Source of the DNA: a virus
Taxonomy: Duplodnaviria > Heunggongvirae > Uroviricota > Caudoviricetes
Reading direction: 5' to 3' (one strand)
DNA: 55,409 nucleotides
Virus record (IMG/VR): IMGVR_UViG_2531839531_000009
The position numbers and the translations under genes are program-made. The stretch's first letter is position 1; every line of letters starts with the position of its first letter. Below the pieces are notes generated by a model. The model did no database searches, was not told the DNA's origin, and saw nothing but the letters and a program-made list of their open reading frames with translations. Positions 652 to 39,353 of the stretch are shown here, one piece after another.

Positions 652-1842
652 ATGAATACTGGATATTCTCCCGAACAAGGGCGGGGCTTCGTTCGTCCTG
701 AAAAACAGAATCTGCAAAATTTTGCCGAAATTATTCCGGTTATTTCCGGCCTTACTGGCGGGAGTGAAACCAATATTGTTAACGCCAGAGCGTTGCAGAT
801 GTTTGATGATAAAAAGGGAGTAAATTTAACTTACACCCCTGACGGCAATCAGAATATGAGCATTATCTCTGAGTCAGGTTTCTACAAACTAATAAAAACA
901 AAAAGCGCCCCGTTGCCGGAGCGCCTTTGTGAACAATTAACCTACTGCGCAAAAAATGAATCTGAGCAGTGGGATTATATCAACCGTGTGGCGAAGCGCC
1001 ACAATTGCCGGATAACAGGCAAAACAAAGGCCACCCGCAACGGTGGCCCCTCGACACAAGCTACACGTTATCCCCAACGCATGAGCATCACCAACAATGC
1101 CACATTTGCGGCTGGTGGGCAATGTGATCAGTCAGATTTGGTTCGTTCCAAGGTTTGCAACGAGAGCTTTTTCCTGTGCTCTTTAAGGAATTTCTCAAGA
1201 GCAAAAGCACATGGCGCGAATCTTTCTGATTCATGCTCTATCTTTCTGCGCCGTCTTTTCCGTGCCGGTGATAATGTTTTGGTCAATTCTTTATCGGTCA
1301 TTGTGTTGTCCTGCATAGCAATGCGCCGTAATACCTTACACCACGGCGCTGATGGTGATTACTCTGGTTCTTTGGTCTTGCGACGCTGGAGTTCTTCGCG
1401 TGCAACGGTGACAAGCTGCCCGATTTCTTCCGCTGCTTTGATGCCGATTTGTTCGACCTTAGCCAGGGCATCCAGTGACGACACAAGGGGATTTTCTCCG
1501 CTGCCTTCTGCTTGGCGGCGGGCTATTTCTCCGCGCATGGCGGTTACGATAAATCCGGCATTGCTTTCGCCGTCCAGCTTAACGGATTCCATCCCTTGCA
1601 TAACATCTAGTGGGACTCTGACAGTTGTCAGTTGTGATTTTGCGTTTTTGTTAGCCGTTGCCATTTCTGAAACTCCTAATCATCGGTGTGTTTCAGTATA
1701 CACAAAAAAAGAAATACAAAAAGCCTTGACGTGTGTTTCATGCGCTCATAACATGAAACACACCAAAAGAATTGTTGAAATACAAAGAGCAACGCCCCGC
1801 AGTGCCGGAAACACATACGGGGCGTCTAACCACCAACGATAG
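652..1842 (+). CDS. hypothetical protein; 3' extent uncertain
   Basis: 396-codon open frame with no recognisable SD; the C-terminal third is low-complexity and overlaps a well-supported minus-strand gene at 1359..1664. Confidence 0.3.
   Translation: MNTGYSPEQGRGFVRPEKQNLQNFAEIIPVISGLTGGSETNIVNARALQMFDDKKGVNLTYTPDGNQNMSIISESGFYKLIKTKSAPLPERLCEQLTYCAKNESEQWDYINRVAKRHNCRITGKTKATRNGGPSTQATRYPQRMSITNNATFAAGGQCDQSDLVRSKVCNESFFLCSLRNFSRAKAHGANLSDSCSIFLRRLFRAGDNVLVNSLSVIVLSCIAMRRNTLHHGADGDYSGSLVLRRWSSSRATVTSCPISSAALMPICSTLARASSDDTRGFSPLPSAWRRAISPRMAVTINPALLSPSSLTDSIPCITSSGTLTVVSCDFAFLLAVAISETPNHRCVSVYTKKEIQKALTCVSCAHNMKHTKRIVEIQRATPRSAGNTYGASNHQR
1359..1664 (-). CDS. hypothetical small protein
   Basis: 101-aa ORF with protein-like, balanced composition; AGGAG about 9 nt upstream of the ATG on the minus strand. 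Confidence 0.45.
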   Translation of the reverse strand: MATANKNAKSQLTTVRVPLDVMQGMESVKLDGESNAGFIVTAMRGEIARRQAEGSGENPLVSSLDALAKVEQIGIKAAEEIGQLVTVAREELQRRKTKEPE

Positions 1843-2701: not shown

Positions 2702-3001
2702 ATGAAACAGAAAAATTCTGGCTTTACTGCCAGTGGTCTCCCTCGGCCTGAAATCCGCCCCGGCGATATTTTCCGGGATAACTACGGTGGCACGGTAACG
2801 ATTAAAAGCGTGGCGGGGCGGTGCGTTACTTACCGCCGTGATGGGTACGGCTATGACTGCGTGATGCCTGCTTATCAGTTCCGGCGTGATTTTTCACTGA
2901 TACAGGCCACACCACGCAAACAGCCCACCAGCAACGCAAAGGCACGGGCAAATATTCAGAAAATGAAAAACATGATTAACGCATTCAGGGGCAAAAAATG
3001 A
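2702..3001 (+). CDS. hypothetical protein
   Basis: 99-aa ORF; its stop overlaps the ATG of the replication gene (ATGA). Confidence 0.4.
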   Translation: MKQKNSGFTASGLPRPEIRPGDIFRDNYGGTVTIKSVAGRCVTYRRDGYGYDCVMPAYQFRRDFSLIQATPRKQPTSNAKARANIQKMKNMINAFRGKK

Positions 3002-4413
3002 AACTGGCACCGAACTTAAAAAAACAGCCACACGACAAAATGACCGAAGTCATTATTTTTGCGGGTAGTGATGCCTGGGCGCACGCGAAACAGTGGCAGG
3101 AACAGGACGGGCGACTTGCTGGTGATAACGTCCCGCCTGTATGGCTGGGAGACAGCCAGCTTGACGAACTGGCAGACCTGAAAATTATCGACGATGGTCG
3201 CTATTGTGTCCGGCTGTACAAGGCAGGCCACATCAAGCCGTCAAATATTAATGCTATCGGGCAAAAGCTGGCGGCGGCAGGTGTACGGGATGCGAATTAT
3301 TACCCTGATGGAATGCACAGCCAGAAGCTGGAGAACTGGCACGACTACCTGCAACGGATCCGCGAACAGGCAGAGCGCGGGGAAATACTTACTGACGAGC
3401 AATACAGCCAGCGAAAAACCACGCTACCAATGAGCATTGGATCTGCAGGGTACGACACACAGCTTGATTATGTCGTTAAGGGCGTGATTCCGGCTAATTC
3501 ATTGTGCAGCACATACGGCGCGAGCGGTTCCTATAAATCGTTCCTCGCGTGTTCCTGGGCGTGTCATGTTGCCACTGGCCGTCACTGGGGAGGCCGCAGG
3601 GTGGCGCATGGTTCGGTGATGTATGTTGTCGGTGAAGGTGGCATTGGTGTCCCCCGCCGTATCAAGGCATGGGAAATCGTTAATGATGAACGGGTGGAAA
3701 ATCTGTACCTGGTAAACCGCCCGATTTTTCCGGCAGTCCCGCTTGATGTTGATGAAATGGTCATCGCTTCCCGCCAGGTTGAACGGGAAACGGGTAAACC
3801 GGTACGCATGATTATTCTTGATACGCTGGCGCGTTGCTTTGGCGGTAATGATGAAAATGACGCGCGGGATATGGGGGCGTTTATCCGTGGATGTGACGAA
3901 CTGAAACGCCGCACAGGGGCCACGGTGCTGGTGGTTCACCATTCCGGCAAGGATGAAACAAAGGGGGCGCGTGGTTCCAGTGCATTTCGTGCATCTCTGG
4001 ACGCTGAATACCGTATTCGCCGTGAAGGTGCAGACAGTGAAGCCCTGGTTATCTCCTGCACAAAAATGAAGGACGCGGAGGAACTGAAAGAGGCCGCATA
4101 CGATTTACGTGTGGTGGAGCTTTTTACCGACACTGACGGGGAGTTAATCACGTCGCTGGTTGTTGTGGATAAGCCGCGCCCACCCGTTGAACTGGAGCGC
4201 ATCGAGGAAGCCGGGAACAAGACGGAGAATCATGCCGCGCTATGGGGCTGTATCCGTTCACGCACACAGCGCGGAGATAAATGCACTATTCCGTTGTTGC
4301 GCGATGATATGAAAAAGCTGGGGTATGAGATGAAACACTTCCGGCGCTGGCTGTACAAGCTGGAAGGTGATGGCGTTATTGCTATTGACGGTGATGACGT
4401 GCGCCCACTGTAA
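2998..4413 (+). CDS. replication protein with RecA-like (RepA/DnaB-type) ATPase domain
   Basis: 471 aa; Walker A-like YGASGSYKS and Walker B-like RMIILDTLAR...VLVVHHSGKD; resembles primase-helicase/Rep proteins of satellites and genomic islands. Confidence 0.75.
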   Translation: MKLAPNLKKQPHDKMTEVIIFAGSDAWAHAKQWQEQDGRLAGDNVPPVWLGDSQLDELADLKIIDDGRYCVRLYKAGHIKPSNINAIGQKLAAAGVRDANYYPDGMHSQKLENWHDYLQRIREQAERGEILTDEQYSQRKTTLPMSIGSAGYDTQLDYVVKGVIPANSLCSTYGASGSYKSFLACSWACHVATGRHWGGRRVAHGSVMYVVGEGGIGVPRRIKAWEIVNDERVENLYLVNRPIFPAVPLDVDEMVIASRQVERETGKPVRMIILDTLARCFGGNDENDARDMGAFIRGCDELKRRTGATVLVVHHSGKDETKGARGSSAFRASLDAEYRIRREGADSEALVISCTKMKDAEELKEAAYDLRVVELFTDTDGELITSLVVVDKPRPPVELERIEEAGNKTENHAALWGCIRSRTQRGDKCTIPLLRDDMKKLGYEMKHFRRWLYKLEGDGVIAIDGDDVRPL

Positions 4414-4614: not shown

Positions 4615-4866
4615 ATGACCAGAAAAACCAGAGATAAGACAGCGCCAAAATATAAAGCGTTAGACATGACAGAGCACGCCTTAAAGGTGGCAATCAGAAC
4701 GATAGACCGCCACGCTGGGGAAGGATACGCGAAAGCACACCCCGAACTGATAAGCGCATTCATGACCACGACGGCGGCAAACTTTGCCACGCTGACAGAA
4801 CGGGAGATTGCCGAAGCGGAACAGGTGACAACCATCAACATTAAAACTGGAGAGCAGACAGCATGA
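4615..4866 (+). CDS. hypothetical protein
   Basis: 83-aa ORF starting just after the iterons; stop overlaps the next start. Confidence 0.4.
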   Translation: MTRKTRDKTAPKYKALDMTEHALKVAIRTIDRHAGEGYAKAHPELISAFMTTTAANFATLTEREIAEAEQVTTINIKTGEQTA

Positions 4867-5219
4867 CAGCACAGATAGCGGCTTACGGGCGGCTGGTGGC
4901 TGACCCGCAGTTAAAGACCACCAGCAAGGGTACACAAATGACGATGGCTAGTATGGCGGTCCCCCTTCCGTGCAGCCAGGCAGATGACGGAACGGCGACG
5001 ATGTGGTTATCCGTCCTGGCGTTTGGCAGACAGGCCGACGCACTGGCAAAACACCACAAAGGCGAACTGGTGAGCGTGGCGGGTAACATGCAGGTAAGGC
5101 AGTGGACAGGCCAGAACGGCGAAACGCGGCAGGGCTGGCAGGTTATCGCAGACAGTGTAATCAGTGCCAGAACGGCGCGACCGGGCGGCAAAAAAAGGTC
5201 AACAGGACCAGGCTACTGA
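4863..5219 (+). CDS. putative single-stranded DNA-binding (SSB-like, OB-fold) protein
   Basis: 118 aa; ...WLSVLAFGRQADALAKHHKGELVSVAGNMQVRQWTGQNGETRQGWQVIADSVI has the pattern of short SSB proteins; by eye only. Confidence 0.5.
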   Translation: MTAQIAAYGRLVADPQLKTTSKGTQMTMASMAVPLPCSQADDGTATMWLSVLAFGRQADALAKHHKGELVSVAGNMQVRQWTGQNGETRQGWQVIADSVISARTARPGGKKRSTGPGY

Positions 5220-5503: not shown

Positions 5504-6544
5504 ATGGTTGATTTATATTCGCCTGCCCAGCTTGTGCAGGTGGCTAATGCTGAAGATGTGCAAAAAAAATTAAATGCGTTGTTTACCAGTTTGTTTTTCA
5601 CTCGCTCGGTAATGTTTGAATCGAGAGACATTATTCTTGATACGATCGACGATCCAAATATCCCGATCGCGGCGTTTTGCTCTCCTATGGTGGGCAGTAA
5701 GGTTTCACGAGATGAGGGATACGAATCAAAAACAATTCGCCCTGGCTATATGAAACCGAAAAGCAGCATTGATCCAAATAAGTTAGCTGTGCGCCCTGCT
5801 GGTGTGTCACCTGAGCAATACAATGCTTTTGGGGCGCGTAATATTAAAGTTAAACAGGCGATTGTAAATCAGGCTAAAGCTATTCGTGCACGTATTGAAT
5901 GGCTTGCTGTTCAGGCAATCACAACGGGGAAAAATATCATTGAGGGCGATGGTATTGAACGTTATGAGCTGGACTGGAATATAAAACCACAAAATATTAT
6001 CACGCAGTCTGGCGGTGCTGAGTGGTCAGGTAAGGATAAAGAAACTTTTGATCCAAATGATGATATTGAGAGCTACGCAGAATTTAGTGAGGGCGTCACT
6101 AATATCATCATTATGGGCGGTAATGTATGGAAGAAATACCGTTCATTCAGAGCGATAAAAGAGGCTCTGGATACCCGTCGTGGTTCTAATTCCGAACTGG
6201 AAACGGCCCTTAAAGACCTTGGTGATTCGGTGAGTTTTAAAGGGTATATGGGCGATGTTGCGATTGTTGTTTACAGCGGACGTTATACCGACGAGGACGG
6301 AACTGAAAAACATTTCCTTGATCCTGATTTGATGGTGCTTGGCAATACGGCTCTTCAGGGGATTGTCGCCTATGGCGGTATTCAGGATCCGGAGCTAATC
6401 CGAATGGGGCTGACTAAAGCCGAACTTGCACCGAAAAACTATATTGTGCCTGGTGATCCGGCTATTGAGTACGTACAAACGCACTCTGCACCACAGCCAA
6501 TACCGGCCCGCATCAATCGTTTTGTTACCGTTCGCATTGGCTAA
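5504..6544 (+). CDS. major capsid protein, lambda gpE family
   Basis: Translation from ATG 5504 (AGAGGA SD) aligns by eye along its length with lambda gpE, e.g. ITQSGGAEWSGKDKETFDPNDDIESYA and LDTRRGSNSELETALKDLG...YMGDVAIVVYSG. Confidence 0.85.
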   Translation: MVDLYSPAQLVQVANAEDVQKKLNALFTSLFFTRSVMFESRDIILDTIDDPNIPIAAFCSPMVGSKVSRDEGYESKTIRPGYMKPKSSIDPNKLAVRPAGVSPEQYNAFGARNIKVKQAIVNQAKAIRARIEWLAVQAITTGKNIIEGDGIERYELDWNIKPQNIITQSGGAEWSGKDKETFDPNDDIESYAEFSEGVTNIIIMGGNVWKKYRSFRAIKEALDTRRGSNSELETALKDLGDSVSFKGYMGDVAIVVYSGRYTDEDGTEKHFLDPDLMVLGNTALQGIVAYGGIQDPELIRMGLTKAELAPKNYIVPGDPAIEYVQTHSAPQPIPARINRFVTVRIG

Positions 6545-6553
6545 GGGGGAGCA

Positions 6554-6895
6554 ATGGCTACTCATTACACTGAACTCATGTCTGGCACTGAAGCACTGGT
6601 TACTACGCTGGGGATATTTTCAGCCAATAAAGGGGTAATACCTGCGTTTACGCCACTGATGCAGGAAGATGCAACTGGTGCGCTAGTGGTATGGGATGGA
6701 ACGAGCGCAGGCAAAGCGGTTTATGTTTCCGCTGTACAAATCGACACAGCGAAAAAAACACAGGCACAGGTTTATAAGACAGGTGTTTTAAATGTTGATG
6801 CTCTGAACTGGCCTGAGTCTGTAAAAGAACTGTCGGCAAAGGTTGCCGCGTTTGTTGGCTCAGGTATTTCTGTTCAGCCGCTGGCTCGTGTGTAA
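6554..6895 (+). CDS. head decoration protein, lambda gpD family
   Basis: 113 aa; TPLM, LVVWDGT, YKTGVLNVDALNWPE and AFVGSGISV match conserved gpD blocks (TPLM, LVAWDGT, YKSGTFRYEDVLWPE, AFAGTAISI). Confidence 0.75.
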   Translation: MATHYTELMSGTEALVTTLGIFSANKGVIPAFTPLMQEDATGALVVWDGTSAGKAVYVSAVQIDTAKKTQAQVYKTGVLNVDALNWPESVKELSAKVAAFVGSGISVQPLARV

Positions 6896-6906
6896 AGGGG
6901 GATACA

Positions 6907-7290
6907 ATGCAGAATCATTACAATGACCTTAAGCCAATTGCCGAAATGATGTATCCGGATCCAGCAGTAGAGGAATTAAAGGCTATTGCTGACAAAATGC
7001 GTTTAAGTGAACGCCTTGTTGATATGAATCAGGTGATGGAACTTACTACCCTTAGCCGTCGCACATTGCTAAACCTTGAGGCTCGCGGAGAGTTCCCCGA
7101 ACGCGTACAGGTTACGGAAGGGCGTAAGGCCTGGTATTTAAGCGAAGTGATCGACTGGATAAACAATATTCCTCGAGCTTCTGAATATTGCCGCGTACCT
7201 GTCCCAAAAAAGCCAGATGCGGCGCTATGCCTCAAGATTGAGCGTGTACGCCGCAATGCACGGGATGGTCGCTATAAGTTGATTGGTTGA
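6907..7290 (+). CDS. second AlpA/excisionase-like HTH protein
   Basis: 127 aa; ...LSRRTLLNLEARGEFPERVQVTEGRKAWYLSEVIDWI is an AlpA-type helix-turn-helix. Confidence 0.55.
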   Translation: MQNHYNDLKPIAEMMYPDPAVEELKAIADKMRLSERLVDMNQVMELTTLSRRTLLNLEARGEFPERVQVTEGRKAWYLSEVIDWINNIPRASEYCRVPVPKKPDAALCLKIERVRRNARDGRYKLIG

Positions 7291-7345
7291 TGAAATTAGG
7301 GCCCGTTCTGGCTGGCGGGTCCTTTCCGGCGATCCGGTAGGCTAC

Positions 7346-7380
7346 GGGGCGGCGACCTTGCGGATTTTCGCTATTTATGA
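7346..7380. other. lambda-type cohesive-end site (cosN-like)
   Basis: ctacgGGGCGGCGACCTtGCGGaTTTTCGCTATTTATGA matches the lambda left cohesive end GGGCGGCGACCT and the following ~20 nt with two mismatches as recalled; lies ~110 bp upstream of the Nu1-like gene. Confidence 0.6.
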
Positions 7381-7491
7381 GCCTTTTCGGGTTGGTGGTG
7401 GTGGTTTTGTTTTTCGCTCTATCTCTATGAATAAAAAGGGAAAGATAACACCAACACACCAACCTGAAACCTTAACTAAGTGGGGATATTG

Positions 7492-8034
7492 ATGAAATCG
7501 CACCTGATGAACAAAAAAACTATGGCGCAAAGCTGCCGCGTAAGTGCGACAGCGTTCGACAAGTGGGGAGTAACTCCCGTTGAGCGTAAAGGCCGTGAGG
7601 CGTTTTATGATGTTGCTAGCGTGATAGACAATAGGGTTAACAATGCAATTAACCAGCTTACAAACGACAAAGGCGAGATTGATGATGATGAACTTTTACG
7701 CGTAAGAATCAGATTGCTGACAGCACAGGCGGAAGCGCAGGAACTTAAAAACGAGCGCGAACGCGGCGAGGTGATTGATACAAAGTTTTGCATCTACGCG
7801 ATTTCAAAACTAGCGAGTCAGATTTCATCAATCATGGACAGCCTCCCGCTCACAATGCAAAGGCGCTTTCCCGATATAAGGCCGTATATGCTGGATGAAC
7901 TAAAAAGGGAAATAGCCAAAGCATGTAACGCATGTGCAAGACTTGACGAAAACCTGCCACAGATACTGGCTGATTACCTGATGGAAACTACCGGAAGCGC
8001 GCCTGAGAAGTTGCTACAGAACAAAGGCGAGTAA
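7492..8034 (+). CDS. terminase small subunit, lambda Nu1 family
   Basis: Conserved blocks shared with Nu1: LTAQAEAQELKNERERGEVIDTKFC, SIMDSLPLTMQRRFPD; start 7492 (GGGG 6 nt upstream) or 7507. Confidence 0.8.
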   Translation: MKSHLMNKKTMAQSCRVSATAFDKWGVTPVERKGREAFYDVASVIDNRVNNAINQLTNDKGEIDDDELLRVRIRLLTAQAEAQELKNERERGEVIDTKFCIYAISKLASQISSIMDSLPLTMQRRFPDIRPYMLDELKREIAKACNACARLDENLPQILADYLMETTGSAPEKLLQNKGE

Positions 8035-8107
8035 CCGCCGCCCCGTAACGGGCCATAATTCCAGGAAGGACCTGACGACACCAGGCTATCAGAGCGATGG
8101 GGGCACA

Positions 8108-8389
8108 ATGACAGAAGCCGAAATACTGCGATTAATCCGCCGCGTTACCGGAATCAGCCAGCAGGCTGACGAACAGGCCACGCAGCCGGACAGCGTGACC
8201 GCTGAAAATTATGTGCGTGTTGTTGCTGAGGTGATGCGCCGTGACGGTATCGAGCTTAACGGCGTGGATATGCGCAACATACGCACCAGAGTTCTGGAGA
8301 TGTTGTCGTACCGTCGCCGCGTGCAGATGTACCAAGAGAAAGAAAAAATTACTTACCACTGGAAGAAGCCGGAACGGTTACGACGTTAA
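8108..8389 (+). CDS. hypothetical protein
   Basis: 93-aa ORF directly after the small terminase gene; no recognisable family. Confidence 0.4.
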   Translation: MTEAEILRLIRRVTGISQQADEQATQPDSVTAENYVRVVAEVMRRDGIELNGVDMRNIRTRVLEMLSYRRRVQMYQEKEKITYHWKKPERLRR

Positions 8390-8395
8390 CTTGTG

Positions 8396-8430
8396 GTGAC
8401 ATACCGTGACGGAGAGTGACACACAGTGAC
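8396..8430. repeat. four GTGAC motifs at exact 10-bp spacing
   Basis: GTGAC at 8396, 8406, 8416 and 8426, immediately after the last island gene. Confidence 0.5.
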
Positions 8431-9163
8431 AAAAAAGACGGTATTTAAATCGGGTGGTGTTTAATACCCCCAGGGGGATAGAAATCCCTACACCTCATTG
8501 CTTATGGGACCGCCCGCCTACCCTTGTTCACATCGCCACAGGTTCGAAAACTTTTTTTGGGAAGGTGTGCACGGGATTGATAGATGAGGTCTATCTATAA
8601 AAAATCACAAAATCCGCGCCATTGCTGGATCCGCCAAAAATCCCCCACCTTACGGCAGACAAAGAAAACGCGAATTATGGGCCTGTTGCAGAGAAAAAAG
8701 GTCTCACTAGTTTTGCGCACCCTAGCATCGAGGTTCGTCAGCCTCCCATCAGCAACCAGATAACTAATCTCGCTGGTGGGCATGATGCCGATATGGGGAC
8801 TTCCATAACGGTTTATCCGTGATCATCCACCAGCTTCATGGCGGATAGCCGGAAAATGATAACGGTATAGCCCGTCGCTTGTGTCTATTTGTTCCGCATT
8901 GTTGCATACAGTGCACCGAACGGTGTAGTTAATGGTGTAGTTAATTTGCGATTTTTAACGTTATTTGCAGCGATGTTTGTTGGTTAAATTCAATAAGTTA
9001 TGCGCATTTAATTATAAATATCGTGAATGAATAATCATGCATAAGCATTTTGCTTAAAATATCGGCAATATTTGGAACTTATTACTGGAATTTTGGGTAA
9101 TACGTTGTTGGACCGACCCGGTCTGGTTATCATATCGCGCTCTTAATTGCGGGAGGATGTAAC

Positions 9164-16736: not shown

Positions 16737-16937
16737 TCACGAGGACTGAAGTTTCTCGCAATTGAAATTAATCAGTTTTACTTTCTGCTCTCTGGAAACT
16801 CCTGCTTCTTTTTTACCTGAGAGCATTTTTTCGCATTCTGATTTCGTTAGTTTAGATTTTGAATATCTTGTCCAGTTAGTAGGAGTGCCACCTTCCTTTT
16901 CAATAGTGGCGGTAATTTTATACATGAACATCTCCAT
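16737..16937 (-). CDS. ydaC: YdaC-like small protein
   Basis: ORF between xis and ralR; start uncertain (ATGs at 16937, 16931, 16925) because the longest frame overlaps ralR. Confidence 0.45.
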   Translation of the reverse strand: MEMFMYKITATIEKEGGTPTNWTRYSKSKLTKSECEKMLSGKKEAGVSREQKVKLINFNCEKLQSS

Positions 16938-17175: not shown

Positions 17176-18279
17176 TTAGGATCCGATATATTCTGGTTTC
17201 ATATCTGTCAGTGTCGTTTTATACGCCTCATATAATTCACCCAGATGTGGTCGAGCAGCATTCAGCGTATTTTCCAGAGCAGTAAATTTTTGTTCTGCTT
17301 CTGGATCACCTGATGAAGGCAGGTCATTTATCATCTTCTCGATACTGGCAATAGCATTGAGACGGTGATGACGCCGAACCACTTTTCCTTTAAGCTCGGC
17401 AAAGAATTCGCCGATCTGGTTTTTCTGATCCTCTATCTCTTGGCGTAATGCAGTGGTTTCCTCAGTCGTGGCCGCGCTTTCGACACGCTGCCGGAATTCA
17501 TCAATCCACGCTTCGTCAATACGCTGTTCGATGGTTTCTGTTCGCTGCTCGCTTACCTCTCTATAATTCTGTACCGGCACAGGATTGATGATTTTTTCCT
17601 GTGGCTCTTCCAGTTCGTCCGGGGTATACACGCCCAGGATGACGTCAGGACAATAAAGGCGAGCCCAGTATTTCAACGCCAGATAGGCGAGCTGTTGTTT
17701 CGGGTTTGAGGTCCATAAAGGAGAATTACGCGTAATCACGCTGGAAAGAAACACCGGTTCTCCCCAGGTAATCTCACTTTCACCGCGAAGAACTGCACCA
17801 ACTCGAACGGATAGACCATACTCATCTTCACTGGTCCAACATGGGATCGTTTCTTTTTTCTCATAGATTCCGCCTCCTTTGGCCGTTTTCTTAACGGTCT
17901 CCACTCGGGCGCGAGAGCATTTCTCCCAGTCTCCCTCGTACTTGTAATGGAAGCGGCCTACAATTGCACTTGAGCTAGAGATCACAGCGTTAACAAGTTG
18001 TGCTTCATAACCCAGAACTCCGTTTACCAGGTGTGTTTTCTGAGCCACAGCGTAGGGGTTCATGCCCCATTGCATGGCTTGCATGATGATTGCCATGCAG
18101 TCGGCAGGTTTTCCGCGAAGGTGATCGGGAACTGTGACGGTGGCCTGTGACATCAACCCGGCTACTTCCTGAAGTTGCGTCAACGCCTGAACGTTAAAAA
18201 TAGTGTTACTGGCAGAAATGGTATTTGGTGTCTGCTCTGTCGTGATGATATTGGTATTTTGCATGGTCAGGTTCTCCAT
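17176..18279 (-). CDS. single-strand annealing recombinase, RecT/Red-beta family, with long C-terminal extension
   Basis: 367 aa; core resembles RecT/Bet (QWGMNPY...GVLGYEAQLVN...NPKQQLAYLALKYWARLY) but differs from K-12 RecT as recalled; about 100 extra C-terminal residues. Confidence 0.6.
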   Translation of the reverse strand: MENLTMQNTNIITTEQTPNTISASNTIFNVQALTQLQEVAGLMSQATVTVPDHLRGKPADCMAIIMQAMQWGMNPYAVAQKTHLVNGVLGYEAQLVNAVISSSSAIVGRFHYKYEGDWEKCSRARVETVKKTAKGGGIYEKKETIPCWTSEDEYGLSVRVGAVLRGESEITWGEPVFLSSVITRNSPLWTSNPKQQLAYLALKYWARLYCPDVILGVYTPDELEEPQEKIINPVPVQNYREVSEQRTETIEQRIDEAWIDEFRQRVESAATTEETTALRQEIEDQKNQIGEFFAELKGKVVRRHHRLNAIASIEKMINDLPSSGDPEAEQKFTALENTLNAARPHLGELYEAYKTTLTDMKPEYIGS

Positions 18280-21200
18280 TAAGCCAGATGCAGTGCTTCA
18301 AGACGACGAAGATCAAAGTCGTTTAATTCGTCGGTATAACTTTCGGTAATCGGTGCTGGCCAGTTGTTTGTCTCTAGGGCTTCGTTTATCTGGCGTAGCG
18401 TCCGGCGATATTCCTGTCGACCAAGTTCCAGGAGTTCCTGCGAGGCTTCCACGACTGCCACCCAGTGATAGCCAACATCTTTGTTGACGAAGATCCAGAA
18501 AAATTTGTCCAGGTTTGCCACATCACAATACATTGCGGCGCTGAGGTGATAATCACGCTCAATAATTTCACGGTGCAGGCGATCTTTAAGTCGTTCCTGC
18601 CGCACATAACCGAGGCTGACTGACTTCACGTCAGCGCAAATGCTTTCGTATGGCAGCCGGATTTCGATATCAGGACGGACCCTGATTTCCAGCCCGGTTT
18701 CTTCATCAAACCCGAAATAGCTGATTTCAGATTTGCGATCCGGGTGGTTGAGTAGCCTTGCTGTATCGGTATTGTTTTGCAGTGCCGCGTGAATATTTTT
18801 TGCCTGTTCATACATATCCGCACTGATAAACGTTTTCCCGGCGTTTTCTTCTTGCTGTCGTTTTTGCCAGTCCTCCAGTGTCACCAGTTCCGGGCGAATT
18901 TTCCGTGCGATTTCGGTTAATTGCTCTTTTGTGCCACTGATGTTGTAAGGCAACGATTTAGCACGTTCTTTTTTTGCCAGTTCTGGATCTACAGTTTCAA
19001 TTTGCTCCAGAAGCTGCTCCCGTGTTCCACTGGTTTTCAGCAGAGGAGGGAGGCTTGCGTTGTATTCTTTAATACAGGCTTTCATTGCTGATGCTGTGTG
19101 TTTTTCCCCCTCAGGAATACGCCGAAATTCCTCCGGAAGCGAACCGTAAAGGATGCCTGTTTCTTCGGTCCCAGCGCTTACCGACAGAGGCTGTATAAGA
19201 GTGCTGTTGTAGCTTTCGATCCACTCTTTCATCTGCTCTGGTGTCATCAGTGATGGCAGACTGGCATTGTATTTTTTAATGATGGTGATCAGTTCGTTAG
19301 AAGTAGTAACCACATATTCAGGAACCGGTACCGGAATGGCATATTCATCAGCGAATTTATCCGTTTCCAGAACGTAGCTGTGAATGATCCGCCCACGCAG
19401 CAATGCATCACTTTCCTCGTTCGGAATAGTCCCGGCAATGTGCCGCCCGTGGTAATACATCAGACTGATGCGGGCATCCTTCAGCATTGTGCTGCTTATT
19501 CCGTTGGCGGAGTGATAAACCTCGTTCGGGAGGTTTTCATAGCGGCCAGGCTCGAAATATGACGGCCACATGATTTCAGTTGCTACATTAGCTGACGCTT
19601 CACCAGTTTCATCACTGCAATCGTGATGCGGATGGTTGCCAGCATTCTCCTTGTGTGGATGTTCAGCGCTTTCCATTTCCTCCGGATCATTTTCCTGAAC
19701 TTCAACCTGATTCTCTTCATCGAATGTTTCCTGGTATGTTGCGTCGCCCATCACCGCACCACAATCAGGGCAGTTGCCGCCGTCGGTCTGACCGCAGGCG
19801 GCGCAGGCTTTTTCCGGCTCCTGTTGCGTTATTGGCTCGGATTGTTTCGTTTCTGGCTCGTTTTGTTGCGCATTTCGGCTGTTTTGTTCCGCTTTCTGGT
19901 CGTTCTGTTCCGTTTCTTGCTGGTTCTGATTCACTGAATCGCGGGTTTCAATCCCCTTCACCCATTTCGGATCGTTCGGGTCGCTAATTCCGTCAACAAA
20001 TTCACCACGTGATGCTGCAAGTAATTTATCGGCATCGACAGGATTTTTTGATGGAATGTTTTTCCGGGCTTCATGGAGTTCTGCCCGCAGTTCCTGATAT
20101 TTCGCATCAACAGAATTTACCTGTGACTGAGCATCCAGCGGCTGCGTGTCCTGATGATGTTCAGTTGCATTCGGTTCCACTGTTTCAGCCGTTGCCTGTT
20201 CATCTGCCATTGCGCCAGATGGTTGTGGCTTTTCTTCATCGTCCTGTTTTCCTTCTTCTGTCACACGCTGCGGCATCGGGGCAGAGGAGCGACCGCAGGC
20301 AATATCCACGATTTCCGGATCAGGGTTGGCATGATCAGTTTCAGTCAGTACTTTGTTCAGATATTCAGTGACGTGCGCGGGGATGACCTCGATCCCAATT
20401 GGTGCTTCTTTCACGGACGCAACCACGGTGGCGCGGGAATAATCCAGCCCGCCAGGCATGGTGATGAATTTGTCGCGGAAAACAGAAAAGGGCGGTTTAT
20501 TTTCAGCGATAATTTCCTCAATGCGTTTAGCGTGTGCCGGATGAAGGTTATAGATGTCCACGTCCATTGAACGGGCCAGTACGCCAGTGGCTACATCGCG
20601 TGCCAGTGACGTCAGATCGTGGACGAAACCTTCGCCGCGATCGGTGAGGTTCCCGCCGCCAGCATTAGCACCGGAAGCCGTGCGAGTGATGCGTGAAACA
20701 CGATTCCCTTTCCTCCATTCTTTTGTCAGAAGACCACGATCAATGTGTTCGGTATCCAGCCAGGCTGAAATGAAATTCTTAAATTCATAGGGCTGATGTT
20801 TTTTCGTGATAGAGAAAACTGCCTTAATTGCATCAGTCAGGCGGAGCAGGGCGGCATTATCCAGAGTTGTCGGTTCTGCCATGCCGCGTATGGCCAACAG
20901 CAGATTCTGGACATAGCTGTTTTCCTGGCCCATCTCAAGAGCAGTAATGTGTTCGCGTTGTTCACGGGTGGCATGATGCAGGTATTTCCGATCCCCGGCC
21001 GCATATGTAAAAATGTGCAGAAGACGCTGTGTGAACCGCAAAGTGGCTACAGAAACTTCGCAATCCTGGCAATCCCCGTGGGCGTCTGCCTGCGCGTTTT
21101 CTTCCTGGCCTCCCGCCAGTTCTTTGGTTTCCTGGGTATTCTCCTGATGGTGAACGTCGTCTGGTGCTGCACCCGGTTTTAGTTCCCAGGTGATGGAGTC

Positions 21201-21446
21201 CTTGCCGAGTTGATAGCGTTCACACCACGTAAAATCGATCTCACCTTCAGGGGGAAGGTCATTAACGACAGGAAAATTAGTTGCAACAGTTTTAAAATAG
21301 TTGCTCAGTTTTTTACCTGACTTAACGATCAGGTAGTCCAGAGTGGCACTGGTCGATTCAAAATCGTCGCTTGCCCACAGGACGACGTCAGGTTCACCGG
21401 ATGATTTTTTCGCTTTCCGTAAAAGGAAGAGTGGTTTTGTGCTCAT
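18279..21446 (-). CDS. recE: exodeoxyribonuclease VIII (RecE family), 1055 aa
   Basis: N-terminal ~450 aa match K-12 RecE as recalled ([26 protein letters not shown]..., [25 protein letters not shown]); acidic Q/E/N-rich region; C-terminal region diverges and holds internal repeats. Confidence 0.8.
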
Positions 21447-22287: not shown

Positions 22288-22695
22288 AATTATCTCCATT
22301 TTTACAAATGAATTTTGTCGATGCGGTGCCTGGTGCCTCCAGGTGACGTTAACCAGTTAACAATTAACGCCGGATAATCCACCCATAACACTGATGCTTT
22401 TAACTGCGCCGCGTGCGCTTAGCCGCATTCACCGCATCACAAAATTCACTTTAAAAAGGGGCGGCAGGGCAGCTACGGAGTAGAACTGATGCCGCCAAAA
22501 ACTAGACACAGCAATGTCGTTATTTACAACCGGAGGCGCACTCCCACCATTTAAATTTAACAGACAAGACCGACTCTTTATGGATACCGGAAATGCGCCT
22601 TCGTATTGTGCCCGGTTTTATTTCACCACCTCCGGGCTTTGGTGGCCTCGGCTATACCCCTACAGCAAGAATATTGAATTAATCCAATAAATGGT

Positions 22696-30274: not shown

Positions 30275-30830
30275 GTTAATACCTTATACAGAATCAATTA
30301 ACAATTAATGGTTCTTCGGACATTGAAATTTATATCGCAAAAATTGGCAAACTCTCCTCGACTACTCACTTGTGGGTATCCTGGCGTAAAAGGAATGACT
30401 TGGCAATACCCGGTGTGATCATAAGTCATTGAAAATGATCATTTTTATCAGCCTTTCTTCCATGATGAATGCTAATGCCATTTGATTTGTTGAGGTGAAA
30501 ACTATTAAAAATCAAAACGATGTAATTGAAATGAACGTTCGGTAGCATTCACGCTTTAAATGTTTCTTTTGTGCTGATTGGATGAATTTTGGTCACTTAT
30601 GATGAGAGATGTTGCAGGAAAAGAAGTTGGCATTGATCTATTGGATAGTTAGAATTGCTGCGGGTGCTTGAGGCTATCTGCCTCAGGCATGAACACCAAA
30701 AGGCAGATAGAGAAAAGCCCCAGTTAACATTACGCGTCCTGCAAGACGTTTAACATTAATCTGAGGCCATATCTATGCGACACATAGAGATTAGCCTCTT
30801 ACGGACCGAAAGGTCAAGGAGAAGCAGGCT

Positions 30831-30986
30831 ATGAAGCAGCAAAAGGCGATGCTAATCGCCCTGATCGTCATCTGTTTAACCGTCATAGTGACGGCACTGG
30901 TAACGAGGAAAGACCTCTGCGAGGTACGAATCCGAACCGGCCAGACGGAGGTCGCTGTCTTCACAGCTTACGAACCTGAGGAGTAA
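30831..30986 (+). CDS. hokD: Hok/Gef-family type I toxin (HokD/RelF-like, 51 aa)
   Basis: Unlisted short ORF: MKQQKAMLIALIVICLTVIVTALVTRKDLCEVRIRTGQTEVAVFTAYEPEE; preceded by a short overlapping mok-like frame and followed by hairpins. Confidence 0.75.
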   Translation: MKQQKAMLIALIVICLTVIVTALVTRKDLCEVRIRTGQTEVAVFTAYEPEE

Positions 30987-33328: not shown

Positions 33329-33404
<76 letters not shown>

Positions 33405-33407
33405 TAT

Positions 33408-33482
<75 letters not shown>

Positions 33483-36354: not shown

Positions 36355-37146
36355 ATGAGCGAGAAATTGAAGATTGGCTATCGCCCTTTACAAGAACTGT
36401 CTCCGTATGCACACAACGCCAGGACACACAGCCCTGAGCAGGTGGCACAACTGGTAGAAAGCATTAAGCAATTCGGCTGGACTAATCCGGTGCTGATTGA
36501 TGAAAAGGGCGAAATTATTGCTGGTCACGGTCGCGTTATGGCGGCTGAAGTGCTCAAAATGGATTCCATTCCGGTCATCGTTCTGTCTGGTTTGATGGAT
36601 GATCAGAAAAAGGCGTACCGCCTGGCAGATAATCGCCTGCCGATGAATGCTGGCTGGGATGAAGATCTGTTACGGATGGAGCTGTCGGACCTAATCAATG
36701 CTGATTTTGATGTCTCCCTGACAGGCTTCAGCCCGACAGAAATTGATGAACTGTTGACGGATGTTTTGCCCGGTACAGGAAATGAGGAGGAGCCGTATAC
36801 GACGAAAATTGATACGCCTGTTTATGAGCCGTCGGGCGGTAAACCGGATATCAGTGAACTGTACGACGATACGAAAACTCAGGAGCTGATCAGCCGGATA
36901 CGTTCGGCGTCCCTTGATCCTGATATTGAGAAATTCCTCCTGTGTGCGGCAGAACGTCACACGGTGTTTAATTTCAGCAGAATTGCGGACTATTACGCTC
37001 ACGCCCCCGCTGAAATTCAGTGCCTTTTCGAGGATTCGGCGCTGGTGATCATTGATTATCAGCAGGCTATTGAAAATGGATTTGTCCGGATGACGCAGCG
37101 CATGGTGGAGATCATGCATGGCGGGGAGGAGGAGGAATATGCGTGA
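36355..37146 (+). CDS. ParB N-terminal domain (ParB/Srx-like) protein
   Basis: 263 aa; N-terminal LSPYAHNARTHSPEQVAQLVESIKQFGWTNPVLIDEKGEIIAGHGRVMAA is a ParB-N signature; no methyltransferase motifs. Confidence 0.65.
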   Translation: MSEKLKIGYRPLQELSPYAHNARTHSPEQVAQLVESIKQFGWTNPVLIDEKGEIIAGHGRVMAAEVLKMDSIPVIVLSGLMDDQKKAYRLADNRLPMNAGWDEDLLRMELSDLINADFDVSLTGFSPTEIDELLTDVLPGTGNEEEPYTTKIDTPVYEPSGGKPDISELYDDTKTQELISRIRSASLDPDIEKFLLCAAERHTVFNFSRIADYYAHAPAEIQCLFEDSALVIIDYQQAIENGFVRMTQRMVEIMHGGEEEEYA

Positions 37147-38071
37147 TGATTTTTGCGCCTTTATTCTGACTCACGGGCGACCGGACAAAGTTCTGACTTA
37201 CCGGACGTTGCGTCGTGCTGGCTATACCGGGAAAATTTTTATCGTTGTTGATGATGAAGATAAGACACGGCATCAGTACATAGCTGAATTTGGTGAACAG
37301 GTGCTGGTGTTTTCCAAATCCGATATCGCCAGTCGTTTTGACGAAGCCGATAATTTCGGTGACCGCCGCTCAATTTTTTACGCCCGTAATGCTTGTTTCG
37401 ACCTGGCAAAACTGGTCGGGTGTAAATTCTTCATTCAGCTCGATGATGATTATCACGAGTTCCAGTTTCGGGTGGATCGCAACTATGACCAGGCCTATTT
37501 TCCGATAAGAAAACTGGATGCGATCCTTTCTGAAATGCTGGCGTACTACGAATCAATACCTGCGCTTTCCATCGCTATGTCGCAGGGCGGGGATTTTCTT
37601 GGTGACAATGGCGGCCATGCTTCGTGGGTGAAACGCAAGGCAATGAACAGCTTTATCTGTTCGGTTGATCGACCGTTCTCATTCATGGGACGCATTAACG
37701 AGGATGTGAATACGTACACGAATCTCGGTCGCTGTGGTGAATTGTTTATGACGATCGGTGCTGTCCAGTTAGGGCAGAAACAGACGCAGAAAAACAGCGG
37801 CGGAATGACCGAGCTGTATCTGGATTCCGGAACCTACGTTAAAAGTTTTTACTCCGTCATGTATGCGCCGTCGTGCGTAAAAATCTCACTGATGGGTGCC
37901 AGCCATAAACGCATTCACCATCAGGTCACCTGGAACAACGCTGCAGTAAAAATCCTTCACGAAAAATACAGGAAGAAGACACCCTGCATATCAATGGGGG
38001 TGACAAATGATTCCGTATTCGAAAGTCGAGTCTCTGGCAGCGTGCCGGATGACTGCACAACAAATCGCTGA
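37139..38071 (+). CDS. putative GT-A-like nucleotide-sugar transferase (DxD motif)
   Basis: Strong SD GGGGAGGAGGAGG; N-terminal AFILTHGRPDKV...IFIVVDDEDK and FFIQLDDDY resemble GT-A/GT2 signatures; assignment by eye. Confidence 0.4.
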   Translation: MRDDFCAFILTHGRPDKVLTYRTLRRAGYTGKIFIVVDDEDKTRHQYIAEFGEQVLVFSKSDIASRFDEADNFGDRRSIFYARNACFDLAKLVGCKFFIQLDDDYHEFQFRVDRNYDQAYFPIRKLDAILSEMLAYYESIPALSIAMSQGGDFLGDNGGHASWVKRKAMNSFICSVDRPFSFMGRINEDVNTYTNLGRCGELFMTIGAVQLGQKQTQKNSGGMTELYLDSGTYVKSFYSVMYAPSCVKISLMGASHKRIHHQVTWNNAAVKILHEKYRKKTPCISMGVTNDSVFESRVSGSVPDDCTTNR

Positions 38072-38261: not shown

Positions 38262-39353
38262 ATGAGCAGACCGGACTGGGGGGCGTTGCAGCAGGAGTAT
38301 ATTGCTGAATACACCCGCTCCGGTATATCTCCGGTGGCATGGTGTGAAGCAAGGGGACTGAATTACGCAACAGCCCGTCGTTACATCAAAAAACCTCCGA
38401 AAAATGCGCAGACAGAAATGCGCAAAACTGCGCAAAAAAGTGCGCAGAAAAAATCTGCGCAGACTGCGCAAAAGCAGAACGGAAAATCTCAGAAAAAAAA
38501 GCCAGTATCCGATGCGTGCCTGAATAAGGGCGACACGGAGGAATTTTCGTTCTGTCCCGATGAATTCGGCATCTCAGAGCAGCAGACGAAATTTGCGATG
38601 CTGGTTGCACAGGGGAGAAAACTCGTTGAGGCATATCGCCTGGCAGGATACGAGTCAGAGGGGAATGCGGCCTACGTCACTGCCAGCCAGCTCCTAAGAA
38701 ATCCTAAGGTTTATCGGGCTATCTCATGGTTCCGCAATCAGTACCAGAAACGCTATACCGCAGACCTAGATTTACTGGTGAGTCAGTTGATGGCCATTGT
38801 CCAGGCCGACCCCAATCAGTTGGCACAATTTCGCCGTGTTAACTGCCGTTATTGCTGGGGCGAGAATCATCTCTACCAGTGGCGTGATATTGCAGAATTC
38901 GATAAGGCAGCAGCACAGGCCTCCAGAGATGGCAAACCCGAGCCGGAATATGGAGGCCTCGGCTTTGTTGATAACGCCATACCCAATCCGGATTGTCCGA
39001 AGTGCTGCGGTGAGGGAACGGGACAGCTTTATATGGCTGATACCACTCTGCTTGATGGGGATGCGCGACAATTATATGCAGGGGCAAAGCTCGGGAAATT
39101 TGGTGTTGAGATCCTGCTGGAGGATAAGGCTGCCGCCCGGCGCGAACTTATCAAGCTGATAATGGCGACGAAAGGAGGTTCTGCTAGTGGTGCAACTGAC
39201 AGTCGCAATGATCTGGAGCTTGAAGGACTGAGACTTCGCAACGAAAAGCTGCGCACTGAGATTGAAAACCTCAAAAAAGGCGTGGGTGGTGAGAATAACG
39301 AAATAATTATCCACAACTCTCTGCCGATGCCGGGAGTGGATAATGTCGATTGA
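38262..39353 (+). CDS. putative terminase small subunit
   Basis: 363 aa with N-terminal HTH (GISPVAWCEARGLNYATARRYIKK) directly upstream of the large terminase; contains a short AQK(S/T)AQK repeat. Confidence 0.55.
   Translation: MSRPDWGALQQEYIAEYTRSGISPVAWCEARGLNYATARRYIKKPPKNAQTEMRKTAQKSAQKKSAQTAQKQNGKSQKKKPVSDACLNKGDTEEFSFCPDEFGISEQQTKFAMLVAQGRKLVEAYRLAGYESEGNAAYVTASQLLRNPKVYRAISWFRNQYQKRYTADLDLLVSQLMAIVQADPNQLAQFRRVNCRYCWGENHLYQWRDIAEFDKAAAQASRDGKPEPEYGGLGFVDNAIPNPDCPKCCGEGTGQLYMADTTLLDGDARQLYAGAKLGKFGVEILLEDKAAARRELIKLIMATKGGSASGATDSRNDLELEGLRLRNEKLRTEIENLKKGVGGENNEIIIHNSLPMPGVDNVD

Follow-up and report, generated by a model that had tools for sequence, protein, structure and literature searches.

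Phage-inducible chromosomal islands (PICIs) disseminate genes for virulence and defence at high frequency. For the cos-type PICIs of Gram-negative bacteria, the only packaging mechanism worked out so far is that of the Rpp proteins, which depends on the small terminase subunit (TerS) of the helper phage. In the island EcCICFT073, Rpp must heterodimerise with the helper TerS (PMC6739421). Proteins of the Rpp group are 135–154 aa long and consist of winged-helix and dimerisation domains, without the C-terminal domain that binds the large terminase subunit (TerL). PICI cos sites combining lambda-like cosQ and cosN with a foreign cosB have already been published, and Escherichia coli (E. coli) PICIs encoding a TerS have been catalogued, EcCIIHE3034 and EcCI18098 being listed as such (Fillol-Salom 2018, PMC6092414). 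In the open-access literature and bioRxiv, no description of the cos/cosB of a TerS-type island was found and nothing beyond this 2018 catalogue entry, nor was any satellite-encoded full-length TerS described as operating in a cos system. Here, an island of this kind was analysed in IMG/VR virus record IMGVR_UViG_2531839531_000009, a stretch of 55,409 bp referred to below as the window. Its cos site lies directly upstream of a terS gene of its own. The module suggests a second packaging route, in which a complete TerS and a matching cosB are placed beside copied cosN and cosQ. The reading favoured here, with some reserve, is that the TerS of the island recognises the island cosB and recruits the TerL of a lambda-like helper to the conserved cosN/cosQ, so that tandem copies of the island would enter helper heads.

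EcCICFT073 (Fillol-Salom 2018, 2019; PMC6092414, PMC6739421) is a member of the same island family and matches the window island in the order of capsid, decoration, cos, adaptor and 93-aa open reading frame (ORF). The corresponding elements there are capsid c1499, decoration c1500, a c1501-like gene, cos1, rppA with 144 aa and again the 93-aa ORF. Both islands have lambda-like cosQ, cosN and spacing, a non-lambda cosB starting at about +48, no TerL gene and lambda-like helpers, the latter predicted for the window island. They differ in the adaptor, which in EcCICFT073 is a 144-aa Rpp with a lambda-type winged helix and no TerL-binding tail, whereas in the window it is a full TerS of 180 aa with an N15-type domain. 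The inverted second cos site (cos2) is intact in EcCICFT073 and truncated in the window. EcCIIHE3034 and EcCI18098 share the whole cos–cosB–terS module, with a TerS 87% identical to that of the window and identical R3-like and R2-like blocks, but are integrated between cspD and clpS instead of abgR and smrA, carry a c1501-like gene upstream of cos where the window has an AlpA-like one, and retain an intact cos2.

A parallel outside this group is offered by SaPI1 and SaPIbov1, in which a satellite small terminase directs the helper large terminase to a satellite-specific site, as is proposed for the window island. The SaPIs differ in their pac/headful packaging, in the unrelated TerS family and in that the phage TerS has to be blocked by a further protein, Ppi. 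Unlike them, the window element uses a cos system, so the nicking and termination sites of the helper must be copied too.

The lambda-like cosQ–cosN core

The 12-mer GGGCGGCGACCT, identical to the lambda cohesive end, was found at 7347–7358 and occurs only once in the window. It is preceded at 7346 by a G, which corresponds to the final base of the lambda right end, so the left end starts one nucleotide later than the 7346 given in the preliminary description. The sequence across the junction, read within 6900–8300, is ...GGCGGGTCCTTTCCGGCGATCCGGTAGGCTACG|GGGCGGCGACCTTGCGGATTTTCGCTATTTATGAGCC... Two mismatches to lambda, C13T and G18A, were all that the first 34 nt of the left end contained, in agreement with the near-exact cosN with two mismatches claimed earlier. 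With cosN taken as 16 bp (PMC9026076), that is the 12-nt cohesive end and 2 bp on either side, it occupies 7345–7360 on the + strand; its flanks, ACG/..TGCGG, are 1 nt off lambda.

An alignment with lambda cos regions had been set as the test of how far the similarity extends. Anchored on the 12-mer, the circularised lambda cos junction (NC_001416) aligned without gaps over 78 bp, lambda −31 to +47 corresponding to 7316–7393 (+ strand), a block that comprises cosQ, the spacer, cosN and the lambda +13..+47 segment. The packaging-termination element cosQ, GGGTCCT, lies at 7317–7323 on the same strand, is identical to lambda −30..−24 and keeps lambda spacing. It was retained in all nine aligned E. 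coli islands and in the Enterobacter/Citrobacter-type satellites. The interval 7346–7491 delimited earlier thus did contain cosN upstream of terS, but cos as such begins upstream of it, with cosQ at 7317.

A blastn search with a 251-nt query against 50,697 phage records matched only lambda-like cos regions and covered only 7315–7393, with E values for the cos block of 3e-18 (lambda) and 8e-20 (other lambda-like phages). A 20-mer across cosN gave one match, with one mismatch, and none of 100 shuffles gave any. The similarity to lambda is far above chance level and, judged by its sequence, the site is a lambda-type cosN with an intact cosQ and lambda spacing. No Rfam match was obtained in the cos region, and none of the 97 IMG/VR contigs carrying the motif, most of which are proviral calls from isolate genomes, terminates at cosN, a feature looked for as a proxy of cleaved ends.

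Variant overhangs were also encountered. One TerS-type island (E. coli UID2309220041, L011 655–670) has the 12-nt overhang GGGCGTCAGGCG and the lambda-like phage PhiR46_1 (L116 930–945) has GGGCGGAAGGCG; both finish in AGGCG, while that of lambda finishes in CGACCT. This hints that satellite cosN variants may track those of their helpers.

Candidate cosB elements between cosN and terS

In phage lambda, cosQ and cosN are followed by I2, R3, I1, R2 and R1 and then by the gene for Nu1. The R3 site of lambda spans bp 50–65 from the left end with TerS contacts at 55–63, and that of N15 was placed at bp 48–60 by linker scanning, the cosN–R3 distance being critical (Murialdo & Feiss 2022).

In the window, lambda identity collapses past +47. 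Two G/T-rich stretches follow, GGTTGGTGGTGGTGGTTTTG at 7390–7409, which opens with GGTTGGTGGTGGTGG at 7390, and CACCAACACACCAACCTGAAA at 7449–7469 (given in + strand letters), which includes CACCAACACACCAACC at 7449–7464. The octamer GGTTGGTG occurs in only two copies on both strands of the 55-kb window. Both copies lie in the candidate cosB, in mutually inverted orientation, and widen to a 13-nt inverted repeat (7385–7397 and 7457–7469; 92% complementary).

In an alignment of nine islands, which are 83–100% identical across the region, the invariant parts were cosQ, cosN (with a variant overhang in one island), CGCTATTTATGAG, TGGTGGTGGTTTTGTT and ACACCAACCTGAA. The block TGGTGGTGGTTTTGTT occupies 7396–7411 (bp 50–65) and ACACCAACCTGAA, inverted, occupies 7456–7468 (bp 110–122), each being unchanged in all nine islands. 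Elements that could be cosB-like had been proposed for this gap in the preliminary description, and the two sequence elements named do exist there, at R3- and R2-like positions and with blocks invariant across islands. The conserved core at the R3 position is, however, TGGTGGTGGTTTTGTT and not the 'GGTT' with which the left motif pointed out earlier opens, as this opening differs between islands. A pattern scan of IMG/VR yielded 54 distinct variants in which the right-hand ACACCAACCTGAA, lying outside the scan pattern, was invariant and the flanks were variable. In the Enterobacter/Citrobacter-type satellites, with a TerS 55% identical to that of the window, cosQ, cosN and GGTGGTGGTG.TTGTT were kept at the same coordinates.

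The left block was delimited as a candidate R3-equivalent element, GGTGGTGGTGGTTTTGTT, at 7394–7411 on the + strand (bp 48–65), with TGGTGGTGG at 7396–7404 inside it. As the conserved block coincides with the mapped coordinates of both R3-lambda and R3-N15, it sits exactly at the R3 position, and the island sequence GGTGGTGGTGGTT (bp 48–60) resembles the N15 R3, GAGGTTGTTGTTT. The right block, CACCAACACACCAACCTGAAA, was delimited as an inverted R2-like element on the − strand at 7449–7469 (bp 104–122). It contains the invariant ACACCAACCTGAA and the right arm of the 13-nt inverted repeat, and lies near the position of the inverted R2 of lambda. Between the two, at the position of the integration host factor (IHF) site I1 of lambda, there is an A/T-rich spacer (7412–7448, + strand) with 80% A+T at bp 76–90, in which CTATCT.TATGAAT is kept across islands.

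The site shares with phage lambda cosQ, the 12-nt overhang and the presence of R-like elements at the R3 and inverted-R2 positions, but the sequences of the conserved blocks are unrelated to the lambda R consensus CGTTTCC.TTCT, R1 is absent, no clear I1 is present, and terS starts at bp 146 as compared with bp 191 in lambda. With N15 it shares the closest phage TerS (gp1), a short cosB with an R3 of G/T triplets at bp 48–60 and a short distance from cosN to terS. N15 differs in having its own TerL and an overhang (GGGCGGCGTCCG) other than that of lambda, and in lacking an inverted R2-like element ahead of gene 1. A copy of the R3 motif inside terS, comparable to the remote 'rR2' of N15, was not found within 7300–8100. 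Among phages, N15 and not lambda is the closest model for the TerS/cosB pair of the window.

A promoter scan detected no sigma-70-like site in 7394–7469. The data support the view that the G/T-rich elements behave like cosB, as putative TerS-binding sites. The main argument for 7394–7469 being a recognition site and not a mere terS promoter or leader is that cosB tracks the adaptor gene, as described below.

The island TerS

The gene terS (7492–8034, + strand) encodes, according to Pfam, PHROG and tblastn matches, a full-length Nu1-family small terminase of 180 aa with an N15-type DNA-binding domain. The Pfam profile Phage_Nu1 (PF07471) was matched with 83.9 bits against a cutoff of 30, over profile positions 35–162 of 164, which bears out the Nu1-like gene noted earlier downstream of cos. 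The match to phrog_57 spans residues 1–172 (E 1.3e-52). In tblastn the protein showed 47.6% identity to N15 gp1, with 92% of its length aligned, and 36.5% to lambda Nu1, the coverage being 89–92% for the two phage proteins. Identity to N15 gp1 and lambda Nu1 was 55% and 34%, respectively, in the DNA-binding domain, 55% and 57% in the oligomerisation core (residues 72–127) and 32% and 37% in the putative TerL-binding C-terminal part (residues 128–168). The DNA-binding domain has the shorter architecture of N15 and an AFDKWG segment, presumably the recognition helix.

The gene is under purifying selection, with a ratio of nonsynonymous to synonymous substitution rates (dN/dS) of 0.17 relative to the Nissle/IHE3034 allele and of 0.19 in the C-terminal 40 codons. 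AlphaFold2, run on an alignment of 21 sequences, predicted the secondary structure helix-helix-strand-strand-helix, which is compatible with a winged helix, in a model whose confidence was too low for use in a fold comparison (predicted local distance difference test score 57, predicted template modelling score 0.29). Searching the PDB sequences with TerS (phmmer; E ≤ 0.01, then ≤ 10) returned no Nu1, Rpp or other relevant match, and an ankyrin-repeat match obtained in this search was rejected as spurious.

RppA of EcCICFT073 is about 16% identical to the island TerS, stops about 45 residues earlier, matches phrog_57 over residues 7–47 only and has a lambda-type DNA-binding domain; on these grounds the island protein was classified as a complete TerS and not as an Rpp. 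It could still act in the manner of Rpp, hetero-oligomerising with the helper TerS so that a mixed complex would read the island cosB and the helper TerS would supply or share the binding of TerL. Transfer would in that case depend on the helper TerS, with a dominant-negative disturbance of helper packaging as the principal effect. Consistent with such a mode, the oligomerisation core is the most phage-like part of TerS (48% identical to CFT073 phage 4, in addition to the 57% to lambda), terS lies immediately downstream of cos1, in the exact slot that rppA takes beside the same cos1 in EcCICFT073, and transfer of that island needs helper terS (PMC6092414). Unlike in Rpp, however, TerS homology continues to the C-terminus, and the tail is under selection, although it would be needless were the helper TerS supplying TerL binding. 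Together with the low identity to RppA and the N15-type instead of lambda-type DNA-binding domain, this makes the Rpp-like mode unlikely in our estimation.

Co-variation of cosB with the adaptor gene

The cos1 site of EcCICFT073 agrees with those of the Nissle and IHE3034 islands in cosQ, cosN, the bp 13–35 segment and the flanking genes. Its cosB reads ...GAAGGTGACACCACCACCACTTG, with ACCACCACC at bp 55–63, and is followed by rppA. Swaps of cosB have established that RppA-TerS recognises the EcCICFT073 cosB (Fillol-Salom 2019, PMC6739421). The TerS-type core GGTGGTGGT (bp 48–59) is the complementary repeat of the Rpp-type ACCACCACC, in the opposite orientation. The 11-nt core TGGTGGTGGTG is likewise common to EcCICFT073 cos1 (L014 2540–2660) and the window (7394–7404) in opposite orientation, which may point to a flipped geometry of binding or be a coincidence between triplet repeats. 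In a third arrangement, found in the island of E. coli JNEC-KY203 (L013, 2440–3010), cos1 and an inverted cos2 are present with no terS or rpp ORF between them, and the sequence at the R3 position, GGTTGTTGTTTAAT, is identical to the N15 R3 core.

From this co-variation across islands it follows that cosQ and cosN track the helper TerL, and that cosB tracks the DNA-binding adaptor of the island. A tentative generalisation, to which we would give somewhat less than an even chance, is that in E. coli satellites of the cos type a 'specificity cassette' can be exchanged beside a fixed, helper-compatible cosQ–cosN, and that the terS form of this cassette would be the first counterpart of the SaPI TerS strategy in a cos system. 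The cassette would exist in at least three forms: rpp with an (ACC)3 cosB, full terS with a (GGT)3 cosB (as in the window), and an N15-identical R3 without an adaptor gene. Inverted cos copies bound the cassette in relatives of the window island. If the cassette proposal holds, satellite TerS and helper TerL would form a chimeric holoterminase for which helper TerS is unneeded, the island being packaged and the helper starved of TerL.

The third arrangement also bears on the possibility that cos is a passive site, used by the TerS and TerL of the helper itself, for example an N15-like phage, the island terS being dispensable for packaging and having another role, such as interference, or none. 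The N15-identical R3 core of the JNEC-KY203 island without terS or rpp, the resemblance of the window R3 block to the N15 R3 and the packaging specificity common to N15 and lambda are all compatible with this. On the other side, cosB and terS vary together and are conserved together in hundreds of genomes, selection acts on an intact terS, and the R3 core of the window island differs from that of N15 at several positions of the mapped site. Passive use of the site was accordingly rated as distinctly improbable.

The proposed packaging route

In the favoured route, in which the island TerS pairs with a helper TerL, a lambda-like helper would induce the island, leading to excision and replication; an AlpA route of helper induction has been shown for the island family (PMC6092414). 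The predicted winged-helix N-terminal domain of TerS would read the R3-like block, probably together with its inverted partner in the E. coli lineage. TerS would oligomerise through its conserved core, and its C-terminal domain would bring a gpA-type helper TerL to the lambda-identical cosN. Once the concatemer is cut at the window cos, packaging would proceed rightward through terS and around the unit, and would terminate at a cosQ–cosN once the head is full. Four units of 10.17 kb amount to 40.7 kb, which is within the packageable range of lambda, and such a multimer mode of packaging has been proposed for EcCICFT073 (PMC6092414). Helper DNA would be disfavoured because, on this proposal, the island TerS does not recognise the helper cosB. 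The site would thus be a mosaic, in which cosQ, cosN and spacing are kept near-identical to those of lambda-like phages so that the helper TerL can nick and end packaging there, and cosB is replaced by an island-specific (GGT)n-rich R3-equivalent and its inverted partner.

The dependence on a helper had been deduced earlier from a cos site lacking a cognate large terminase, and at the sequence level this deduction stands. No TerL gene adjoins terS within the island, and its 10.2 kb contain neither a large terminase gene nor genes for portal, protease, tail or lysis; the TerL and heads of a helper are therefore needed.

The identity of the helpers is suggested by relatives of the island. Helper-embedded PICIs of the 11capE type (PMC10111431 / bioRxiv 10.1101/2022.07.18.500453) share the RepA–capsid–decoration–AlpA–cos–terS module, with a TerS 55% identical to that of the window, and lie inside gene E of lambda-like prophages, whereas the window island occupies a chromosomal site and not a helper. 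The element 11capE was described in that work as being without terS. In the Logan/JGI contigs L016–L018 (TerS P0105), the same module together with FRG and DUF3892 cargo interrupts the major capsid gene of lambda-like prophages, with a truncated Phage_cap_E gene and then FI, FII, Z and U downstream. These contigs represent helper-embedded PICIs that do carry terS. The position of the relatives inside gene E of prophages with FI, FII, Z and U points to lambda-like helpers.

Several observations weigh against the proposed route. The islands of strains IHE3034 and 18098 were not transferred on mitomycin C induction of resident prophages (PMC6092414), so no helper is known. The C-terminal segment is the least conserved part of TerS, with 32–39% identity to the TerS of phages and 24% to that of the distant satellite, and a near-identical C-terminus was found in no phage of the database searched; its compatibility with any given TerL is conjectural. 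The winged-helix fold assigned to TerS rests on homology, in view of the low-confidence AlphaFold model. Between the two cosB elements no convincing IHF consensus was found, the best match to WATCAANNNNTTR having three mismatches as compared with one for lambda I1, although N15 likewise does without I1 (Murialdo & Feiss 2022). The right-hand element was not conserved in the distant Enterobacter/Citrobacter-type satellites and may be lineage-specific or serve terS expression. The prophage at the Rac site, which neighbours the island in the window, was rejected as a helper, as it has a Terminase_2-type small terminase and no gpA-like ORF of 640 aa.

If the proposed route is correct, it would explain the mobilisation of abundant islands without a known helper. 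Terminase recognition could then also be dissected with a natural set of TerS/cosB specificity pairs, namely lambda, N15, Rpp-type and TerS-type, all set beside a constant cosN, and engineered transducing particles could draw on orthogonal cos/TerS parts.

Architecture and distribution of the island

The island is a unit of 10,166 bp between abgR and smrA with a 26-bp exact direct repeat at its ends. The right attachment core (attR), CGGTGTAGTTAATGGTGTAGTTAATT, lies at 8921–8946 on the + strand, 10,166 bp from the other repeat; attL and the integrase gene fall outside the window, upstream of its first base. The 26-bp repeats flank the region from int to terS in the near-identical strain WCHEC020032. 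The order of genes is int, a helix-turn-helix (HTH) regulator, Icd-like, DUF4222, RepA-type helicase, single-stranded DNA-binding protein (SSB), capsid, decoration, AlpA, cos, terS and the 93-aa ORF. The helicase gene (2998–4413, 471 aa) is the largest ORF, and two HTH/AlpA genes are present. With its att repeats, unit of about 10 kb, int, AlpA-type regulator, replication module and a layout as in EcCIIHE3034, the element is, by gene content and order, a PICI of the published EcCICFT073/EcCIIHE3034 family.

All four annotated genes around the cos–terS module lie on the + strand. Upstream are a lambda gpE-like major capsid protein gene (5504–6544; Pfam Phage_cap_E, 4.8e-41; phrog_29), the counterpart of EcCICFT073 c1499, a gpD-like head decoration protein gene (6554–6895; Pfam HDPD, 2.3e-15), the counterpart of c1500, and, directly before cos, a gene for an AlpA-family excisionase/regulator (6907–7290; Pfam Phage_AlpA; phrog_2790, 1.8e-48). 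Downstream, the last island gene is the conserved 93-aa ORF (8108–8389; phrog_1561, 5e-56), to which no function was assigned and which follows terS or rppA in over 1,400 E. coli genomes. The cos–terS module (7290–8400) was present at a coverage of at least 80% in 715 of 5,426 complete E. coli genomes (about 13%), at several different chromosomal sites, the carriers including O157:H7, Nissle 1917 and IHE3034.

A truncated inverted cos2 remnant was identified on the − strand at 8036–8072 as a 37-nt exact match to the left half (cosQ to cosN) of the Nissle/CFT073-type site. The remnant, GGTCCTTCCTGGAATTATGGCCCGTTACG|GGGCGGCG, breaks off after nucleotide 8 of the overhang, right next to the stop codon of terS. 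A full inverted cos2 is present in EcCICFT073 and Nissle, the rpp or terS gene being flanked there by inverted cos copies; in the window island a deletion of about 180 bp took the right half of cos2.

The truncation of cos2 raises the question of whether cos–terS is a non-functional relic, a piece of a lambda/N15-like prophage that was taken up by the island and is now decaying. Such decay would also fit the annotation of ssb as frameshifted in a near-identical strain and the failure of the tested TerS-type islands to transfer. It is hard to reconcile with the exact cosQ and cosN, with cosB spacing kept to the base pair, with the dN/dS of terS or with the occurrence of the module in 715 complete genomes at many integration sites, and we attach very little probability to it.

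The ssb ORF of the island (4863–5219) is 118 aa long, the SSB proteins of relatives having 136–140 aa; WCHEC020032, in which the counterpart is annotated as frameshifted, is 99.8% identical. An ORF at 652–1842 (+ strand, 396 aa) was considered as the integrase gene and rejected, as it had no Pfam match, is unannotated in the near-identical genome and the real int lies upstream of the window. It overlaps a YlcI/YnfO gene annotated on the opposite strand and is probably not a gene.

The neighbouring prophage

The remainder of the window contains a prophage (15185–55409) at the Rac site, next to ttcA. It encodes a RecE-like exonuclease VIII (18279–21446), the small RNA RalA (16741–16919), DicF (22459–22510), sok (30662–30833) and two tRNAs (33329–33479). 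Its Terminase_2-type small terminase gene lies at 38262–39353, preceded by a gene for a TET-associated glycosyltransferase (37118–38071), which suggests DNA hypermodification in this prophage.

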